64,000 nt of DNA from an uncultured Clostridia bacterium (GCA_947625725.1 CANQPI010000009.1:194-64193); one strand, 5' to 3'. Shown: positions 1-6,923, counted from the first letter of the stretch. Made by a program: numbers and translations. Notes: generated from the sequence alone by a model not told the origin.

Positions 1-3000
1 ATCATATAATTGACGGGTGTGCAACCGTCCTCTGACTTGTCAAACAATATGGACAACAAGCAAATATCTTTTTCTTCCAATTTAATCATTTCGCTGTCGA
101 TAAGGTCGCCCATGGTCAAGTTTGTTGCCAACGTCGTCATCTTGTCGGCGTTCAATTCGTCAATGCGCAGGTTGGACATTTTTTCGTTCAAGCCTTTTAC
201 TCTGGTACAGGGGTGTTCGCCGGGTACGCCGTGTACGTGTTCGCCGAGATCAGTCGTGCCATAGTCTTTACAGTCGTACCACACGTAACCGAAACACTCA
301 AAGGTGTGCATTTCTTCGCCGCTGTGTTCGTTGGGTTTGTCGCATATCAACTGCGCCTCGAAGTAAATGCCGTGTTTAATGTCGTAAATGTACCAATTGC
401 CGTCCTTGTCTTTGAAAACTTCGTCCCGGTGATGTTTGGTGTCCATATCGGTAAACTTGTGTTCCCATTGTGCGGATTGCTCTTGTTCTTTGGCTTGGCG
501 GTCCACTTCTTTGCGTTGGAAGCCCATTGCAACGCCGACTTCGATACCGTCAAGTTCGCCGTTGAGTTCGCCGATCTTTATTGCGCCGAGTTCACGCAGC
601 AGCGGGTTGGAATTGTTATCCAACTCCAACACTTCGCCGAGTTCGGTGTCGTACACGACGGACGTAATGCCTTTGCTGTCGAGTTCGCTTATTTTGAGGT
701 GCGCCATTCTGCCCAGCAAATTGTTTGCGGGAACATAACTCTTGCCCTCCTCGCTCCATTCGCCGTCGTGCGAGTGCGCGTCGGTACATTCTTGATACCA
801 CAACACGATAAAGCACTCCGCGCCGTGCGTGTGGGCAAGTTTTCCGCAGTCCGCTTCCTCGTCGGTAGAGCCGTGGCAGATTGCGGGGTCGTGTTTATGC
901 TCCGTTTTGGTGCAAGTCAGCAACGCCTCGTACCAAACGCCGCCGTCGTTTAGGGCGTATTCCACCGAGCCGTCCGTGTTTTTGGATTTTATCAAGTCGC
1001 TCACGACGTCGGTGGTGTAGTCCGCTTCGAAAACGGGTCTGCGCTTGAATTGCAACAGATTGCCCAGATACATTTGGTCTATCGCTCCGCTCAGTTCGCC
1101 CAGCGGCGTATCGGCAAGGGACGCAAGGGGCGAGGGTATATTCTCGCCCAACACGTCGCGCATAGTAAATGTCTGAATGGTCTTGTCCAGATCGCCCAAC
1201 TCGCTTACCTTTTTGTTGGCGAGTTTTGCCATCATTCCGACGACTTCCGTTCCGTCTTTGCTCCACTCAAAATTGCCCTCAACGCCGTCGCCCTTGGTGT
1301 ATTGCAACAGATCGCCCAGATACATATTGTCAATGGCGGAATCGAGGTCTTTTATTTGCGTATCCTTGATACTTGCAAGCATAGAGGGAACGCTGTCGCC
1401 CAACACGTCCGACAAGGTGAAGGTTTGTATCGTTTCGTTCAGATCGCCCAACTCGCTTACCTTTTTGTTGGCGAGTTTTGCCATCATGCCGTCAACTACC
1501 GAACCGTCCTCTTTGGTCCAAACGTAGTCGCCGTCCGTTCCGTCGCCCTGCGTGTATCCCAACATAACGCCCAAGTACAGGTCGTTTATGGCTTGTTCCA
1601 TTTCGTTGAGTTTGGCGTTTTCCAGACCTTTCAGTTGCGAGGGAATGGCGTCGCCCATCACTTCGCCGAGGGTAAAGTCCATAACGTCCAACGTGCCGAG
1701 GTCCGCTACGGTGTTGTCGGCAAGTTTTGCCATAACTCCCGTGACGGGTTCGCCCGCCGCGTCGTTCCAGCCGTCGTCCGTTTGGGTGTAGCCGAGCATG
1801 TCGCCCACGCGCAATTGTTCGACTGCGCTTGCCAGGTTGCCGACGGTGGTGTCCTTCAACGCGCGCAGTTGCGAGGGAATGTTTTCTTCGCCGCCCATAA
1901 CCTGACTGAGAGTGAGGTCGTTGATAACGCCGTTTATGTCCGTCAGGTCGTTGATTTGTTTGTTGGCAAGCACTTCGGTCAGATCTTTGACCTCGTCGTC
2001 GCCGTTTTCCCACACAAAGCCGTAGCAACCCGCAACGTTGTGTTCGTGTTCTTCCTTGCCGCAGGTGTAGTCGGGCGCGTCGCCGCAATCTTCGGTGTGA
2101 GCGTGTTGCTTGGTGCAGGTTACTTTGCCTTTGTACCAAGTTTTGCCGTCCATTGACAGCCCGAGTACTTCGCCCTCTCCGCTCAAAATTACGTATTTGG
2201 CAACTTTGTCGCCGTCGTCGTGCGGTTCGGTTTTGTACAGCGGCACAACGTCGCCGTCGGGTTTGGCGATCTCCTCCAAAGAGAAACCCATAAGTTGCCC
2301 GATATACATATTGTCTATTCCGCCGTTTATCAGTTCGCCGATAGTCATATCGGCAATGCTTTCAAACACGCCGCTCATTTCCTGCCCCGCCAACAGTTCG
2401 CGCAGGGGGATATTTGTGAGTTTGTCCATCAAGACGTCGCTGTCGCCGCCCATAAGCATGCCCACCGTAATGTCGGCAAGCGCGGCGTAAATACCGCTCG
2501 CGTCCTCGCCGAGTTCCGTTTTCCACTCGTAGCCGAAACAATCGTCGTTGTGAACGTGTTCCTGTTCGTCAATGGTGCAGGTGAGTTTTGCCTTGTACCA
2601 CACGTCGCCGTCGAGTTTGATGTATTCGTCCGAGGCTTTTCTGACGTTTGTTTCGGGTATCGGCGTGTAATCTTCGGGGTTGGTTACTTCCGTGCGCGAA
2701 AGCGCAAGCAACTGTCCCAAATACAGTCCGTCAAAAACTTCGCCGCCCATCAAGTCGCCGATAGTGTAGTCCACAAAGTTTTCCAGCAGACCGCTTATTT
2801 CCACCGAGTCGCCGAGTAGGTCGCGAATGGGGATATTGGTGAACTTGCTCATCAGCGCGTCCTGATCGCCGCTTGTGAGCATACCGACCGTCACGTCGGC
2901 GATCGCGCCGTAGATACCGCTTGCGGCGTTGTCCTCCGCGTCGTACCAGGCAAAGCCGTAGCAATCGATGTCGTGAGTGTGTTCCGTTTTGCCGCAGGTA

Positions 3001-4049
3001 TAGTTGTCGGGGTCGCCGCACTCCGCCGTGTGAGTGTGTTCCTCGATATTGCAGTTAAACCGCGCCTCGAACGCAACCCCGTCGGTATTGACCAACGCGT
3101 AGTCGCCGTCGTCGTTGCGATAGAGAGTCAAATTGTCGTTTTGGTATTCGGTGTTGTCGTAGTCGGCAAGGTCGTTGATCTCCTTGCGGTGCAGACTGAC
3201 AATATCGCCCAAGTACACGCCGTTGATGATGTCGTCGGGATTGAGGTTGCCCTCGTCGTCGATCATGTCGGCAATGGCGTTGTTTCCGATAAAGGCGTTG
3301 AGGTACTGACTGCTGTCGCCGAGCATGGCGACAATGGGCATTTTGCCCAACTCGTCAAACGCGCCGCCCTCTTTGAATTCTCTCAAAATGTTGCCGTTGA
3401 GCCCGCCGCCGATAAGCGCGCCGAGTTTGGCTTGCCCGACAGCCCACATCAAGGCGTTGTCCTCGGTTTGCTCCAACGGGAGCATGCCCATGGCTACTTC
3501 GGCTATACGCACTTCTTCGAAAACGGTAGCAATGCCGTTTTCGCCCATGAGTTCGGCAATGGTGTGAGCGGACAGTTTGTTCATAAGTTCTTCGGAAAAG
3601 AACGGAATGGGATTTCCCTCCTCGTCCGTGCCGTTGTCCACAAACATATTTACAAGCGCGGGAATAACGCTGACTTTGAGTTTGTTTGTGCCGCCGTCCT
3701 CTGCGAACAAATCGAAAATGGGTATCTCCAATATTTCCGAACGCACCTGTTTGCCGCCGAACAATTGGGACGGGTCGATATTGTAGTACTCGCAAAACTG
3801 TCCCAGCGTAAAGTAATTGCCGTTTTCATCCTGCACGCCTACTTTGTCTTTGTACAGTTTGCTGACGGATTCGGCAATTTCGTAGACGGACATATTTGCC
3901 AGATCGCCCAAAAATTCTCCGCCGCCGGGTATGAATTGACCCGTTTTGGGAATAACCGCCAATCCTATCAACGCTCCGGCGATCGCGCCGAAAAAGAATA
4001 TCACGCCGAAAATCGTTCCAAGGAAAAATGCCAAAATTCTTCTGCCCAT
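1..4049 (-). CDS. giant membrane-anchored repeat protein, C-terminus cut by window edge (>1349 aa)
   Basis: Absent from the ORF track because the frame stays open to the left edge. Hand translation from ATG 4049-4047 gives 1349 uninterrupted codons; no other minus ORF in the track uses this frame. RBS AAGAGG lies 7 nt upstream, inside the 3-prime end of the GDPD gene. N-terminus MGRRILAFFLGTIFGVIFFFGAIAGALIGLAVI looks like a single TM anchor. The rest is acidic, with 84-aa tandem repeats and five Cys/His-rich motifs. Confidence 0.8.
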   Translation of the reverse strand, partial: MGRRILAFFLGTIFGVIFFFGAIAGALIGLAVIPKTGQFIPGGGEFLGDLANMSVYEIAESVSKLYKDKVGVQDENGNYFTLGQFCEYYNIDPSQLFGGKQVRSEILEIPIFDLFAEDGGTNKLKVSVIPALVNMFVDNGTDEEGNPIPFFSEELMNKLSAHTIAELMGENGIATVFEEVRIAEVAMGMLPLEQTEDNALMWAVGQAKLGALIGGGLNGNILREFKEGGAFDELGKMPIVAMLGDSSQYLNAFIGNNAIADMIDDEGNLNPDDIINGVYLGDIVSLHRKEINDLADYDNTEYQNDNLTLYRNDDGDYALVNTDGVAFEARFNCNIEEHTHTAECGDPDNYTCGKTEHTHDIDCYGFAWYDAEDNAASGIYGAIADVTVGMLTSGDQDALMSKFTNIPIRDLLGDSVEISGLLENFVDYTIGDLMGGEVFDGLYLGQLLALSRTEVTNPEDYTPIPETNVRKASDEYIKLDGDVWYKAKLTCTIDEQEHVHNDDCFGYEWKTELGEDASGIYAALADITVGMLMGGDSDVLMDKLTNIPLRELLAGQEMSGVFESIADMTIGELINGGIDNMYIGQLMGFSLEEIAKPDGDVVPLYKTEPHDDGDKVAKYVILSGEGEVLGLSMDGKTWYKGKVTCTKQHAHTEDCGDAPDYTCGKEEHEHNVAGCYGFVWENGDDEVKDLTEVLANKQINDLTDINGVINDLTLSQVMGGEENIPSQLRALKDTTVGNLASAVEQLRVGDMLGYTQTDDGWNDAAGEPVTGVMAKLADNTVADLGTLDVMDFTLGEVMGDAIPSQLKGLENAKLNEMEQAINDLYLGVMLGYTQGDGTDGDYVWTKEDGSVVDGMMAKLANKKVSELGDLNETIQTFTLSDVLGDSVPSMLASIKDTQIKDLDSAIDNMYLGDLLQYTKGDGVEGNFEWSKDGTEVVGMMAKLANKKVSELGDLDKTIQTFTMRDVLGENIPSPLASLADTPLGELSGAIDQMYLGNLLQFKRRPVFEADYTTDVVSDLIKSKNTDGSVEYALNDGGVWYEALLTCTKTEHKHDPAICHGSTDEEADCGKLAHTHGAECFIVLWYQECTDAHSHDGEWSEEGKSYVPANNLLGRMAHLKISELDSKGITSVVYDTELGEVLELDNNSNPLLRELGAIKIGELNGELDGIEVGVAMGFQRKEVDRQAKEQEQSAQWEHKFTDMDTKHHRDEVFKDKDGNWYIYDIKHGIYFEAQLICDKPNEHSGEEMHTFECFGYVWYDCKDYGTTDLGEHVHGVPGEHPCTRVKGLNEKMSNLRIDELNADKMTTLATNLTMGDLIDSEMIKLEEKDICLLSILFDKSEDGCTPVNYM

Positions 4050-4051
4050 AG

Positions 4052-4807
4052 TTACCTCTTGTTTTGTATCAAATCTTTTCTTTCGGGAAGGAAAGAGTCG
4101 AATATCATATTGTCAAAGCAATCTTGCAGTTCTTCGTACTGCGACCGACTCTTTATTGTCCAACATATTATCGGAATTGTTTTTGCCCACTTTTTGAGCG
4201 ATTTGCACCTGCGTATTGTCGCCGCGTCGTAGGCAATGAATTGACTACCGTTCCACTTGCACAGCACCAGATCTCTCAACAGCCACCGTTTGAGCGGAGT
4301 AAACACCCCCGCAAAGGAACAGGACAATTGTCCGCGAACGACTTCGGGCGCGTGTACTTTGAACCAACGCACTATCAAAGGGTTAAACGACTCGATACAG
4401 TAGTGTCCTTTGTAGTTTTTCAACGCGTCGTAGGTTTTTTGTTCGACTTCGCCGATTCGGTCGTGCGTTTTGATCTCCACAACGATATTTACGCCGTTTG
4501 CCGCTTGTAGAAATTGCTCGAAAGTGGGAATGGCGCAATCGGTTTTCAGCAAACGCAACTGTTGCAGTTCGCGCAGAGTTTTGTCGCAAAGTTTGCCGCT
4601 TTCTCCCGTCATGCGTTCGAGAGAGTCGTCGTGGAATACCACCAACACGCCGTCTTTGGTCATTTGAACGTCCGTTTCGATGGCAAAATTGTTTTTTGCC
4701 GCAAGTTCGAATGCGGGCAAGGAGTTTTCCGGAACGACGGCGTTGTCAAACAAGCCTCTGTGCGCCACGTAAACGTCCGTGAGCCACTTGTATTCTTCTC
4801 TGATCAA
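4052..4807 (-). CDS. glycerophosphodiester phosphodiesterase (GDPD family)
   Basis: 251-aa ORF. VAHRGL...ENSLPAFELA...IETDVQMTKDGVLVVFHDD matches recalled GDPD motifs. RBS AAGGAG upstream. Its stop is 2 nt from the start of the downstream giant gene. Confidence 0.85.
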   Translation of the reverse strand: MIREEYKWLTDVYVAHRGLFDNAVVPENSLPAFELAAKNNFAIETDVQMTKDGVLVVFHDDSLERMTGESGKLCDKTLRELQQLRLLKTDCAIPTFEQFLQAANGVNIVVEIKTHDRIGEVEQKTYDALKNYKGHYCIESFNPLIVRWFKVHAPEVVRGQLSCSFAGVFTPLKRWLLRDLVLCKWNGSQFIAYDAATIRRCKSLKKWAKTIPIICWTIKSRSQYEELQDCFDNMIFDSFLPERKDLIQNKR

Positions 4808-5065
4808 ATTTGCTCCTTTTGCGCGACGGGTCGCGCAGTTGACAAAATAATTATTCCCGACAATTATACGCCGATCCGTCGGTATTTCAAACGGAACTAT
4901 TTTGTCAATTATATATTATATATTGAAACATTCCAAATTGCAACAGATTACGGTCAAATTTTTGCGCGCGTTCGGCGCGTAAACAAAAATAACGGAAAAA
5001 CCCCTTTGTCGCAGATATTGTCTGCAAATTGTTTGCGGTTAGTTGCGGCAAACGCTCACAACGTG

Positions 5066-5123: not shown

Positions 5124-6923
5124 ATGTCACAACAGCAAACACGAAATTTTTGTATAATAGCGCACATTGACCACGGCAAGAGTACGCTCGCCGACAGGTT
5201 GATGGAGTACACGGGTCAGGTAGCCAAGCGCGATATGGAAGCGCAATTGTTGGACTCTATGGATATCGAACGAGAGCGCGGCATTACCATAAAACTGACT
5301 CCCGTCAGAATGTGTTACCGCAAGGACGGCACGGAGTACACGTTGAACCTTATAGACACGCCCGGACACGTGGATTTCAATTACGAAGTTTCCCGTTCTC
5401 TTGCCGCGTGCGAGGGCGCGTTGCTAGTGGTGGACGCGTCGCAGGGCGTAGAGGCGCAAACTCTTGCCAACTGTTATCTCGCGTTGGAAAACAACCTCGA
5501 AATCATTCCCGTTATCAACAAAATAGACCTGCCCTCGGCGGATATAGAGGGCGCAAAGAAGGAAATAGAGGATACTATCGGCTTGGATACGACAAACGCG
5601 CCGTTGGTTTCCGCCAAAGAGGGTATCAACATCAAAGACGTGTTGGACGCCGTGGTGGATCTCGTGCCGCCGCCGCAAGGGGACGAAACCGCGCCTCTCA
5701 AAGCGCTCATTTTCGACTGTCAGTACGACAATTACAAGGGCGTTATCATTTTTACCCGCATTGTGGACGGCGTTGTGCGCGTAGGCACCTCCGTCAAAAT
5801 GTTTCAGACCGCGGGCAAAACTTTCGACGTGACGGAAGTTGGCATATTCGCCCCCGCAATGCAACCCGTCGATTGCCTCAAAGCGGGCGACGTCGGCTAC
5901 ATTTGCGCAAGTATCAAGACGGTATCCGACACCAAAGTGGGCGACACCGTTACGGACGCCGCTCGCCCTTGCGCGCAACCTTTGCACGGCTACAAGGAAG
6001 TCAAACCTATGGTGTTTTGCGGCATTTACCCCGCTGACGGCAGCAAGTACAACGACCTCAAAGACGCGTTGGAAAAACTCAAACTCAACGACGCCTCTTT
6101 GACTTACGAGCCGGATACGTCCGTTGCGCTGGGTTTCGGTTTCCGTTGCGGTTTTTTGGGATTGTTGCACATGGAGATCATTCAGGAACGGTTGGAACGC
6201 GAGTTCGATCTGGACTTGGTGACGACCGCGCCCAGCGTAATATACAAAGTTTTTACCACGCAAGGCGACGTGCTGTTTATCGACAACCCCACCAAGTTGC
6301 CCGCGCCCACGCTGATCGAACACATAGAAGAACCGATAGTGCGAGCGGAAATTTTTTCCCCGCCCGAATACGTCGGCGACGTTATGGGGCTGTGTCAGGA
6401 CAAGCGCGGCACGTTTATCGACATGACATATCTCGATACCCGTCGGGTCAGACTCACCTACGAGATACCTCTCAACGAAATTATTTACAACTTTTTCGAT
6501 ACGCTCAAATCCCGCACGAGGGGCTATGCAAGTCTGGACTACGAACTGAAAGGCTTTGTGACGGGCAAATTGGTGCGTATGGACATGCTGTTGAACGGCG
6601 AAGTCTGCGACGCGCTGTCCGTTATCGTCAACGAGGAACGCGCCTACGCGCGAGGACGTCAGATGGCGGAAAAACTCAAAGACGCCATTCCCCGTCAGAT
6701 GTTCGAAATACCCATTCAAGCGGCGATCGGCAACAAAATCATTGCCCGCGAAACGGTCAAAGCCCTGCGCAAGGACGTGCTTGCCAAGTGCTACGGCGGC
6801 GACATCACCCGCAAAAAGAAACTGTTGGAAAAGCAAAAAGAGGGCAAAAAACGTATGCGCCAAGTGGGTTCGGTATCCGTTCCGAGCGAGGCGTTTATGT
6901 CCATACTCAAAATCGACGACTGA
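5124..6923 (+). CDS. lepA: translation elongation factor 4 (LepA)
   Basis: 599 aa. N-terminus [20 protein letters not shown] and DTPGHVDF GTPase motifs; full-length EF4-like sequence. Confidence 0.97.

Follow-up and report, generated by a model that had tools for sequence, protein, structure and literature searches.

On its minus strand, the start of the window (the whole 64,000-nucleotide stretch of DNA that was analysed) carries a gene for a giant protein of an uncultured Clostridia bacterium, which is judged here, with moderate confidence, to be a periscope-like, membrane-anchored, polyanionic stalk of the cell envelope stapled by zinc. The product would be a type II single-pass membrane protein (N-in, C-out), and its polyanionic ectodomain of ~1,370 residues would form an elongated, rod-like stalk running through the cell wall and past it. 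The stalk would be modular: between a conserved membrane-proximal domain and a conserved distal one lies a middle part whose length varies, where blocks of ~20-residue two-helix sub-repeats would take turns with small modules of antiparallel beta sheet. Many such modules are predicted to bear, in the loop between two small sheets, the knuckle C-x3-7-H-x-H-x3-C, which most likely acts as a tetrahedral Cys2His2 site holding a structural metal, probably Zn2+; the metal would staple the sheets together, a task performed by disulfides in aerobic extracellular proteins. The protein may thus serve as a periscope or fibrillar spacer (or adhesin), its length tuned between species, whose task would be to display the distal conserved domain to a partner or to organise the envelope.

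Gene, layout and family

The earlier note had claimed that the ORF track missed a giant minus-strand gene, and that gene was recovered: the frame (3..4049, minus strand) is uninterrupted for 1,349 codons from an ATG at 4049 up to the window edge, and it is absent from the track because ORFs crossing the edge are unlisted by default. Window base 1 is contig base 194; recovery of the full gene from the contig, which the earlier note had proposed, adds 56 codons beyond the edge (contig 25-193 with the stop, the TAA being at 25-27) and gives 1,405 amino acids with the frame unbroken to the TAA. Four long plus-strand ORFs (213-953, 1050-2156, 2220-2819 and 2973-4232), already suspected of being antisense shadows, share one frame and are codon-aligned antisense to the giant gene. 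Differences from a 55%-identical orthologue number 414, 269 and 631 at minus-frame codon positions 1, 2 and 3, respectively; the minus frame is therefore the coding one, and these comparisons indicate that the gene is real and under purifying selection. The orthologue P0003, in another assembly, is colinear over 99% coverage (1,410 amino acids); orthologues of this kind, full-length and colinear in assemblies other than this one, speak against a hidden frameshift. The features of the locus, all on the minus strand and with residue numbers of the giant protein, are as follows:

1..4049, minus: giant gene, codons 1-1349 of 1405 (open frame, homologues, codon-position test)
3951..4037, minus: predicted N-terminal transmembrane (TM) anchor, residues 5-33, with invariant FFLGxIFG (GxxxG) (hydropathy, family alignment, modelled helix 2-31)
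3150..3950, minus: membrane-proximal N-terminal domain, residues 34-300, with about ten short two-helix sub-repeats (67/68 homologues, model, sub-repeat motif)
2946..3137, minus: beta module 1, double knuckle C333-H338-H340-C344 and C352-H357-H359-C363 (sequence, model)
2652..2945, minus: helical block 1, residues 369-466, four sub-repeats h..h..h-[TPY]-[IVL]-[GR]-[DEQ]-L-[LM]-x-G (motif)
2517..2651, minus: beta module 2, single knuckle C491-H498-H500-C504 (sequence, module alignment, model)
2253..2516, minus: helical block 2, residues 512-599 (repeat comparison, motif)
2004..2252, minus: beta module 3, double knuckle C645-H649-H651-C655 and C663-H668-H670-C675 (sequence, model)
1014..2003, minus: four ~85-residue units, residues 683-1012 (repeat comparison, model, hairpin count)
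729..1013, minus: beta module 4, canonical knuckles C1046..C1058 and C1068..C1079 plus an extra C1088-x3-H1092-x-H1094 (sequence, model)
465..728, minus: helical block, residues 1108-1195 (model)
207..464, minus: beta module 5, variant knuckles C1236-H1242-H1248-C1252 and C1260-H1271-H1273-C1281 (sequence, model)
1..206, minus: helical C-terminal (distal) domain, residues 1282-1405, its start inside the window (68/68 homologues, model)
4052..4807, minus: GDPD-family glycerophosphodiester phosphodiesterase, 251 amino acids, TTG start and AAGGAG ribosome-binding site (PF03009, E = 1.5e-26)
4055..4060, minus: ribosome-binding site AAGAGG of the giant gene, within the final GDPD codons (sequence)
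4863..4890, minus: promoter-like TTGAAA-16-TATAAT upstream of GDPD (consensus match only)

The description of the product as one N-terminal TM helix followed by a very acidic ectodomain is borne out. Residues 5-33 form its only hydrophobic stretch, in which F8, G11, G15 and G21 are invariant across the family alignment, and the product carries a net charge of -151 (136 Asp, 116 Glu, 77 Lys, 24 Arg). Positive residues flank the 29-residue helix on its N-terminal side only, where R3 and R4 have equivalents in all homologues, and the flank after it is acidic; the N-in, C-out orientation is predicted from these preceding positive charges. The protein ends in TSADLLG, which is neither LPXTG nor a hydrophobic tail, and a search of the 93%-complete genome for sortase (PF04203) gave no match; since there is no sortase match, the TM helix with its invariant GxxxG is proposed as what keeps the protein on the cell.

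Past the anchor, the N-terminal domain (median 40% identity among homologues) found no match in a Pfam scan. Helical blocks 1 and 2 are 50% identical; each ~85-residue unit comprises a helical block and a knuckle-free hairpin (LGYT..DG..W..DG..V.GMMAKL), the DNA copies of the four units being spaced 252 nt apart, and the distal domain carries conserved columns of its own (C1330, C1343, H1364, H1373). Two AlphaFold2 models (pLDDT 79.9 and 83.5; pTM low, 0.47 and 0.55) consist of short-helix blocks alternating with 3-4-stranded sheets, with low confidence confined to the knuckle loops (pLDDT 47-63); models and motif agree on small beta modules and on stalk sub-repeats of ~20 residues with two helices each. 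The low pTM alongside a high pLDDT, together with the repeat architecture, hints indirectly at an extended, surface-exposed rod. The domain had been called unrecognised, and this description held in every search: the giant protein has no match in Pfam, NCBIfam or PDB sequences, and Foldseek with the two confident models returned none. G5, E, FIVAR and GA repeats have no Pfam match in it, and the recombinase zinc beta ribbon PF13408 has none when the segments of the protein are scanned at E<=10 (only in homologue P0016 does the summed score reach 30 bits, with no single stretch significant alone). The ~20-residue two-helix solenoid repeat has neither a PDB nor a viral fold match; both this repeat and the Cys2His2 knuckle are without a curated model or a solved structure.

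The 69 homologues found are single-copy and syntenic, are labelled hypothetical protein in every source that names one, and occur only in one GTDB family, presumably CAG-314 of the Christensenellales (Ca. Fimimonas and relatives). The carriers belong to a widespread, uncultured gut lineage with small genomes (hosts: rabbit, chicken, mouse, sheep, human). The N-terminal domain stands at one end in 67 of 68 homologues and the C-terminal domain at the extreme C-terminus in 68 of 68; the middle part between these conserved ends ranges from 405 to 1,423 amino acids.

The Cys2His2 knuckle

Five motifs of the form [WY][YF]xAxLxC..(E)HxH..C[FY]G[FY]xW had been placed at nt 2949-3059, 2526-2600, 2007-2141, 756-938 and 204-368, and all were located to within 3 nt. 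As had also been proposed, the knuckles punctuate the repeat blocks, lying singly or in pairs with helical blocks of 90-340 residues between. The C-x(2-8)-HxH-x(2-6)-C tetrad occurs seven times in canonical form, and modules 4 and 5 add variants of it; the corresponding regular expression matches 7 times in the giant gene versus 78 times across six frames of the remaining 1.68 Mb, the chance expectation for a gene of equal length being ~0.03. Among 17 aligned modules W, Y, C, H, H, C and W are invariant, the core pattern of those that bear a knuckle is C-x3-7-HxH-x3-C, and three residues separate H from C in 271 of the 291 knuckles of the family.

The ligand residues come as complete sets. When Cys and His are counted in the hairpin at the corresponding place of 73 repeat units, 43 hairpins have neither residue (0,0) and 21 have two of each (2,2), and none of the 73 has Cys with fewer than two His or a single Cys. 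Gain and loss as 2+2 sets fits a four-ligand metal site; we infer metal binding from sequence, strengthened by the all-or-none pattern of two Cys and two His, and the metal held is probably zinc.

The same sites might instead handle metal at the surface, the HxH/Cys knuckles and the acidic surface capturing or buffering Zn2+ or another divalent metal for uptake, much as in streptococcal Pht proteins, whose repeated surface His motifs bind zinc; the knuckles would then be working sites. The ~9-11 Cys2His2 sets, the negative charge and a location that is extracellular by context are consistent with such a function. However, the knuckle is missing entirely from 43 of the 73 equivalent hairpins, its copy number among orthologues runs from 1 to 11, a Christensenella sp. 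UBA4636 relative keeps the helical scaffold with zero knuckles, and the neighbouring genes (GDPD, lepA and FAD-dependent enzymes) include no metal transporter. An element that is optional, variable in number and absent from that relative has the look of a structural staple that can be dispensed with, not of a core activity, and metal handling is accordingly considered unlikely.

Closure of the loops by a disulfide between the two knuckle Cys, with the HxH having another role or none, would suit the spacing of the paired Cys (10-14 residues apart, flanking a loop) and the low confidence with which the loops are modelled. It is nevertheless quite improbable: the His pair is just as invariant as the Cys pair, all four residues coming and going together, the host belongs to a strict-anaerobe gut lineage, and the Thomasclavelia ramosa protease, with 24 Cys, has zero disulfides in its solved parts or models (PMC12237041).

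The knuckle core is not unique to the giant protein, and comparison of sequences indicates that hundreds of Gram-positive surface proteins share it. A module profile matches 1,217 cluster representatives, 254 of them at E<=1e-10; among the best 150 of the 1,217 matches, 99 lie outside the family and have, immediately behind a signal or anchor sequence, 6-34 knuckles in tandem. Among the best module-profile matches, 35 of 139 newly listed proteins end in LPXTG, and a Pfam scan of 43 matches returned DUF7601 (13), CHAP (7), Gram_pos_anchor (5), SpaA (4) and FctA (3), with single cases of TED, Cna_B, SdrD_B, Collagen_bind, VWA and PA14. Many matches are LPXTG, pilin or CHAP-type proteins with 10-30 tandem knuckles, and their context indicates that the motif, which is widespread and has no curated model, is extracellular. 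The tandem C-x3-6-HxH-x3-C-Y arrays at the N-termini of Clostridia LPXTG, pilin-like and CHAP proteins (unnamed, with no Pfam or NCBIfam model) have the core and spacings of the giant protein, their consensus being L-x-C...H-x-H-x3-C-Y, where 74% of units have Tyr behind the final Cys. Their matches to the profile fall at positions 17-35, with whole-protein E of 1e-28 to 1e-13, scores that are sums of many short, composition-biased matches; common ancestry with the family module is likely. The arrays repeat 20-24-residue units head to tail 10-34 times with no intervening sequence, whereas the giant protein sets each knuckle within a ~40-residue module (DG..WY.A.L.C...C[YF]G[YF].WY) with helical blocks between.

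The paired GDPD gene and the wider reading

Translational coupling to the GDPD gene had been proposed from the junction, which is indeed tight here: the GDPD TAA at 4052-4054 is followed by 2 nt (CT) and by the giant-gene ATG at 4047-4049, and the ribosome-binding site lies in the GDPD 3' end. The 2-nt gap, however, is a local feature, as the distance is 10-422 nt in other species. The pairing itself is general: of the 29 loci with upstream sequence, 28 have GDPD immediately before the giant gene, even where lepA has relocated, and in the usual locus the giant gene directly follows GDPD, beside lepA and with FAD-dependent enzymes also as neighbours. Inspection of the GDPD sequence finds no N-terminal hydrophobic segment or export signal, and the enzyme is therefore predicted to be cytoplasmic; the TTGAAA-16-TATAAT site is probably the operon promoter.

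The extreme charge and the conserved pairing with GDPD, which outlasts the relocation of lepA, raise the thought that the co-transcribed -151 chain provides fixed negative charge and cation buffering where glycerol-phosphate polymers are missing, and the 93%-complete genome indeed has no TagB/TagF-type (PF04464) or LtaS-type (PF00884) gene. This substitution for teichoic acid is very doubtful, given that 130 of 151 genomes from the order lack TagF-type genes, an absence that is therefore not carrier-specific, that the GDPD lacks an export signal, and that the pairing could be synteny inherited within one family. Least probable is a cytoplasmic scaffold with ordinary intracellular zinc sites, since the EzrA layout (one N-terminal helix, then long helical repeats) is shared but the positive charges precede the helix and the acidic flank follows it, and signal peptides and LPXTG anchors are found on proteins that bear the same knuckle.

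A more ambitious version of the zinc-stapled stalk, offered as an outside chance, would make it an undescribed envelope fibre in which a new two-helix solenoid, Zn(Cys2His2) rivets and a GxxxG anchor form a GDPD-paired teichoic-acid substitute (polyanion, cation buffer and spacer), with C-HxH-C marking a very large uncurated class of extracellular structural zinc sites that stand in for disulfides in anaerobic Firmicutes. The giant protein is the largest conserved lineage-specific component of the predicted cell surface in the presumed CAG-314 family, and it defines two building blocks, the Cys2His2 knuckle and the short helical repeat, the former being found also in adhesin-like, pilin-like and wall-hydrolase proteins of Gram-positive anaerobes, hundreds of them at least. 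Should the knuckles bind zinc, anaerobes would have in extracellular structural zinc a general alternative to disulfides, and a domain model would better annotate many gut-microbiome surface proteins now called 'hypothetical'.

Comparison with known systems

A close parallel is the M64 IgA protease of T. ramosa, in which ZBD1 and ZBD2 (CTD2/CTD4) are 'metal-associated periscope domains' whose predicted 2His+2Cys sites link three-stranded sheets, giving a rod that agrees with SAXS (PMC12237041, PMC12415215). Like that protease, the giant protein is predicted to have extracellular stalk elements of a gut Firmicute in which small up-and-down antiparallel sheets would be joined by 2His+2Cys sites, with metal proposed (and in both predicted) in place of disulfides. 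The PDB has no structural homologue of either, and the two agree in their ligand set and in a secondary structure of sheet, loop and sheet (sequence, AlphaFold2). At the sequence level, PDB chain 9qa6_A (1,145 amino acids, including ZBD1-BB8-ZBD2), which is findable in the PDB set because an M64 query retrieves it, was not matched by the module profile (E<=10), by the 1,349 in-window residues of the giant protein (E<=1) or by the tandem-knuckle protein P0150 (E<=10). The T. ramosa domains are all-beta rods near the C-terminal sortase anchor of an enzyme, whereas the knuckles of the giant protein are isolated inserts between helical blocks, in a protein with an N-terminal anchor and no recognisable enzyme domain.

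Eukaryotic CHHC zinc fingers (U11-48K, TRM13, GTSF1; Pfam zf-U11-48K) share the Cys-His-His-Cys order and the final H-x3-C spacing, but they are intracellular, nuclear RNA-binding modules with ~9 residues between the His, and have no Pfam match in the giant protein. The streptococcal Pht proteins, known for an HxxHxH motif and a role in zinc acquisition, are likewise Gram-positive surface proteins with repeated His-based motifs (metal-binding being predicted here); their motif, however, is without Cys and belongs to a different fold, and a role in zinc acquisition is unsupported for the giant protein.

In overall architecture, close analogues are the periscope and fibrillar proteins, such as SasG/Aap with their G5-E repeats and Ebh of Staphylococcus aureus, a giant, helical-repeat, membrane-anchored protein. 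Like these, the giant protein is cell-anchored, with conserved ends and a repeat stalk of variable length, and like Ebh it would be a helical-repeat rod anchored by a TM segment. Its repeat types are unrelated to those of the periscope proteins and its anchor is N-terminal; its length varies between species, whereas periscope stalks vary between strains or species.

The giant gene and its locus

The features on which the argument rests are as follows (window coordinates).
4049 down to base 3, minus strand: giant gene, ATG at 4047-4049, 1,349 open codons inside the window
4052-4807, minus strand: glycerophosphodiester phosphodiesterase (GDPD) gene (PF03009, E = 1.5e-26), its stop TAA at 4052-4054 followed by two bases and then the ATG of the giant gene
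4055-4060, minus strand: RBS of the giant gene, AAGAGG, inside the final GDPD codons
GDPD start, minus strand: TTG with an AAGGAG site, and upstream of it a promoter-like TTGAAA-16-TATAAT
5124-6923, plus strand: lepA (EF4), divergent from the pair of GDPD and giant gene

The minus-strand frame that the earlier note had followed from the ATG at 4049 to the window edge is indeed open, and in the contig sequence (the window being C9:194-64193, in an assembly of 39 contigs and 1.68 Mb) it goes on through 56 more codons and ends at a TAA (C9:25-27), so that the full gene could be recovered; the complete protein has 1,405 aa and a mass of about 154 kDa. The ORF track missed the gene because its frame shows up only when open-ended frames are permitted. 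The four long plus-strand ORFs, regarded in the same note as antisense shadows, all lie in one codon-aligned antisense frame of the gene, and substitutions relative to its orthologue in a related MAG are distributed 414/269/631 over minus-frame codon positions 1/2/3; the minus frame is thus the coding one and the plus-strand ORFs are its shadows. The protein contains 136 Asp and 116 Glu versus 77 Lys and 24 Arg, giving a net charge of -151, together with 22 Cys and 32 His, and its sole hydrophobic stretch is residues 5-33, which agrees with the original description of a very acidic product with one N-terminal transmembrane helix. No paralogue was found in its own genome. An assembly artefact is ruled out by the colinearity of the orthologues, and mobile-element cargo by the fixed syntenic locus.

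The order lepA, divergent GDPD, giant gene is fixed: among the 29 fetched loci whose sequence reaches upstream of the giant gene, 28 have GDPD immediately before it, and this adjacency is kept in five loci where lepA is farther off or absent. The single exception, a homologue locus (L007), has no GDPD between lepA and the giant gene (L007:5294-6001); its giant gene is followed, at L007:10421-12658, by a 545-aa ORF without a domain match and a Fic-domain gene. The 316-nt region between lepA and GDPD carries promoter-like sites on each strand. GDPD itself should be cytoplasmic, as predicted from its lack of an N-terminal hydrophobic segment. The translational coupling proposed in the earlier note holds for this contig, with its 2-nt gap and an RBS within the GDPD 3' end; in the other loci, however, the gap is 10-422 nt, so tight coupling is a local feature that the family does not share. 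The three genes differ widely in their pace of evolution, identity across loci being 84-93% for LepA, 54-75% for GDPD (64-75% without one locus) and 24-62% for the giant protein.

A search of 5.8 billion proteins gave 69 homologues of 811-1,850 aa, called hypothetical protein wherever the source gives a name, from MAGs labelled Clostridiales or Clostridia bacterium, from Candidatus Fimimonas gallinarum and from 'Corallococcus sp. CAG:1435'. Candidatus Fimimonas is the GTDB genus CAG-1435 of family CAG-314, order Christensenellales (PMC8035907). Among whole genomes the giant gene is present in 52 of 82 species and 8 of 18 genera of the window's own GTDB family, which we take to be CAG-314 because the named homologue hosts are classified there, and in none of 145 genomes of the order that lie outside this family. 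The named loci come from gut MAGs of rabbit, chicken, mouse, sheep and human.

Anatomy of the giant protein and its Cys/His knuckles

Conserved domains occupy the two ends of the protein, residues 34-300 being found in 67 of 68 homologues and residues 1282-1405 in all 68, and the part between them varies across homologues from 405 to 1,423 residues and from 1 to 11 knuckles (loops of the form C-x3-7-HxH-x3-C). Two AlphaFold2 models built from a 47-sequence family alignment (residues 1-700, pLDDT 79.9 and pTM 0.47; residues 701-1405, pLDDT 83.5 and pTM 0.55) predict one overall architecture, a succession of short-helix blocks with small antiparallel sheets, each of 3-4 strands, placed between them. 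The blocks consist of a sub-repeat of ~20 residues, usually four per block (helix, two residues, a bridging T/P/Y, short helix; motif h..h..h-[TPY]-[IVL]-[GR]-[DEQ]-L-[LM]-x-G), of which the N-terminal domain is also built. The C-terminal domain is helical, with its own conserved Cys pair (C1330, C1343) and His pair (H1364, H1373). Residues 683-1012 form four units of ~85 residues whose hairpins contain no Cys or His; the DNA copies underlying these repeats (window 1046-1733, at 252-nt spacing) are 100% identical over 23-27 nt only, 79% over 134 nt and 68-85% elsewhere, and since Tandem Repeats Finder detected no DNA tandem repeat in window 1-4100 they are diverged and not near-identical.

The five Cys/His motifs first noticed are all present, each within 3 nt of where it had been placed, and these sites comprise seven canonical C-x(2-8)-HxH-x(2-6)-C tetrads, to which modules 4 and 5 add variant ones. 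Elsewhere in the genome this expression has only 78 matches when all six frames are counted, and for the length of the giant gene about 0.03 would be expected versus the seven observed. The genome has just one other plausible copy of the motif, a knuckle-like CEPKPDHEHTWVNGVCTQC, right behind the lipobox Cys of a predicted lipoprotein of 477 aa whose staphylococcal-nuclease domain matches PF00565 (E = 1.5e-9) on another contig, outside the window (C1:148369-149820, plus strand). The beta module that carries the knuckle has the consensus xxxGxxxxxxDGxxWYxAxLxC-x3-7-HxH-x3-C-[YF]G[YF]xWY; W, Y, C, H, H, C and W are invariant in 17 aligned module copies, and 271 of 291 knuckles have three residues between H and C. 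In the models the knuckle loop is predicted to bridge the 3-4-stranded sheet and a second, smaller sheet, and is their sole low-confidence part.

Cys and His residues were counted in 73 units from the family, in the hairpin linking one helical block to the next (LGY...G[MLIV]xAKL). Neither Cys nor His is present in 43 hairpins, two of each are present in 21, and a lone His occurs once; the remaining hairpins have at least two Cys and at least two His, including doubled 4+4 versions, so that Cys is never found without two His and never singly. Such an all-or-none pattern would be expected if the knuckle were a cooperative four-ligand site inserted optionally in the fold. Consistent with this, Christensenella sp. 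UBA4636 encodes a knuckle-free giant protein built from the same helical sub-repeats and hairpins (ORF of at least 1,689 aa at L033:5-5071, plus strand, contig DHMS01000003.1, with 'h-T-h-G-D-h-h' sub-repeats and 'GYTYD..KVWKNGETxV' hairpins); neither Cys/His knuckles nor a significant Pfam match was found in this ORF. We infer that the knuckles bind metal. That they serve in metal capture, in a role like that of the Pht proteins, is improbable, and that the loops are closed by disulfides is slightly less probable again.

The knuckle in other surface proteins

A search of 1.84 billion cluster representatives with a 40-position module profile returned 1,217 proteins at E<=1e-3, 254 of them at E<=1e-10. 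Members of the giant-protein family match along the full module. A larger second class matches at positions about 17-35 only (core L-x-C...HxH...C-Y), 6-34 times per protein, with a unit every 20-24 residues; in these long proteins the units lie within the N-terminal 15%, directly behind a signal or anchor sequence. An LPXTG C-terminus is present in 35 of 139 newly listed proteins. In 43 tandem-array proteins Pfam identifies DUF7601 (13), CHAP (7), Gram_pos_anchor (5), SpaA (4) and FctA (3), with single cases of a thioester domain, Cna_B, SdrD_B, Collagen_bind, VWA and PA14; the sources give them no names beyond 'CHAP domain-containing' or 'LPXTG cell wall anchor domain-containing' protein, and no Pfam or NCBIfam model covers the knuckle arrays. 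The knuckle is therefore not private to the giant protein, and this company of signal, anchor and wall-protein sequences, together with the lack of a model, indicates that it is an extracellular building block, widespread in Clostridia and uncurated. Were zinc binding to be shown, the finding would gain weight, as the knuckle is common to at least hundreds of gut-Firmicute surface proteins.

That the domain had not been recognised at first sight is borne out by the searches. Pfam and NCBIfam gave no match on the 1,349 in-window residues of the 1,405, nor did Pfam on four segments that together span most of the protein and take in its last 56 residues; PDB sequences gave nothing above chance by phmmer or profile search, and Foldseek found nothing significant for either model in the PDB or for the second model in BFVD. 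One homologue (P0016) has a summed 30-bit Pfam match to a recombinase zinc beta ribbon, in which no individual stretch is significant. Literature searches on the knuckle motif, on CHHC/LPXTG/zinc proteins and on fibrillar adhesins found nothing relevant.

A probable surface stalk and its described analogues

The best-supported reading is that the giant protein is a type II membrane-anchored polyanionic stalk, in which small beta modules would join the helical-repeat blocks and many of these modules would be stapled by a structural metal, probably Zn2+, at a Cys2His2 site. Its most conserved stretch is the N-terminus (MGRRILAFFLGxIFG..., with F8, G11, G15 and G21 invariant, giving a GxxxG motif). 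Sortase (PF04203), TagB/TagF-type glycerophosphotransferase (PF04464) and Sulfatase/LtaS-type (PF00884) genes were undetected in the 93%-complete, 1.68-Mb genome; as sortase is lacking, the conserved GxxxG helix would itself serve as the anchor. An LPXTG protein is ruled out, there being neither sorting motif nor sortase. The missing TagF- and LtaS-type genes might suggest a surrogate for teichoic acid, but this idea, which is quite unlikely, gains little from them, since most of the order is without TagF and its absence carries no specific signal. Positive residues occur only N-terminal to the hydrophobic helix, so a signal anchor is predicted, N-in and C-out; a cytoplasmic scaffold is very improbable.

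The closest described analogues are ZBD1/ZBD2 (CTD2/CTD4), residues 879-1008 and 1101-1171 in UniProt Q9AES2, of the M64 IgA protease of Thomasclavelia ramosa. AlphaFold predicts them to be elongated chains of three-stranded sheets joined at putative two-His, two-Cys sites; they are without structural homologue, CTD2 gives rod-like SAXS data, and the authors named them 'metal-associated periscope domains', the zinc in them being putative (PMC12237041, PMC12415215). The knuckle modules answer to this description. However, the PDB construct 9qa6_A (1,145 residues, ZBD1/ZBD2 included) is unmatched by the module profile (E<=10), by the in-window 1,349 residues (E<=1) and by a tandem-knuckle protein, P0150 (E<=10), and the T. 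ramosa domains are therefore treated as an analogue, the closest one described, and not as the same family. A sequence bridge through M64 homologues failed because those of Clostridia lack knuckles: of 401 Clostridia genomes searched, 9 have M64 peptidases, and no knuckle was found in these peptidases or in the 120 best homologues of one, among which the T. ramosa protein was not listed. The giant protein is a lineage-restricted form of the variable-length surface-stalk theme, made from two uncurated building blocks, and may be likened to periscope and fibrillar surface proteins in its conserved ends, its variable-length middle and the extracellular company of its knuckle.
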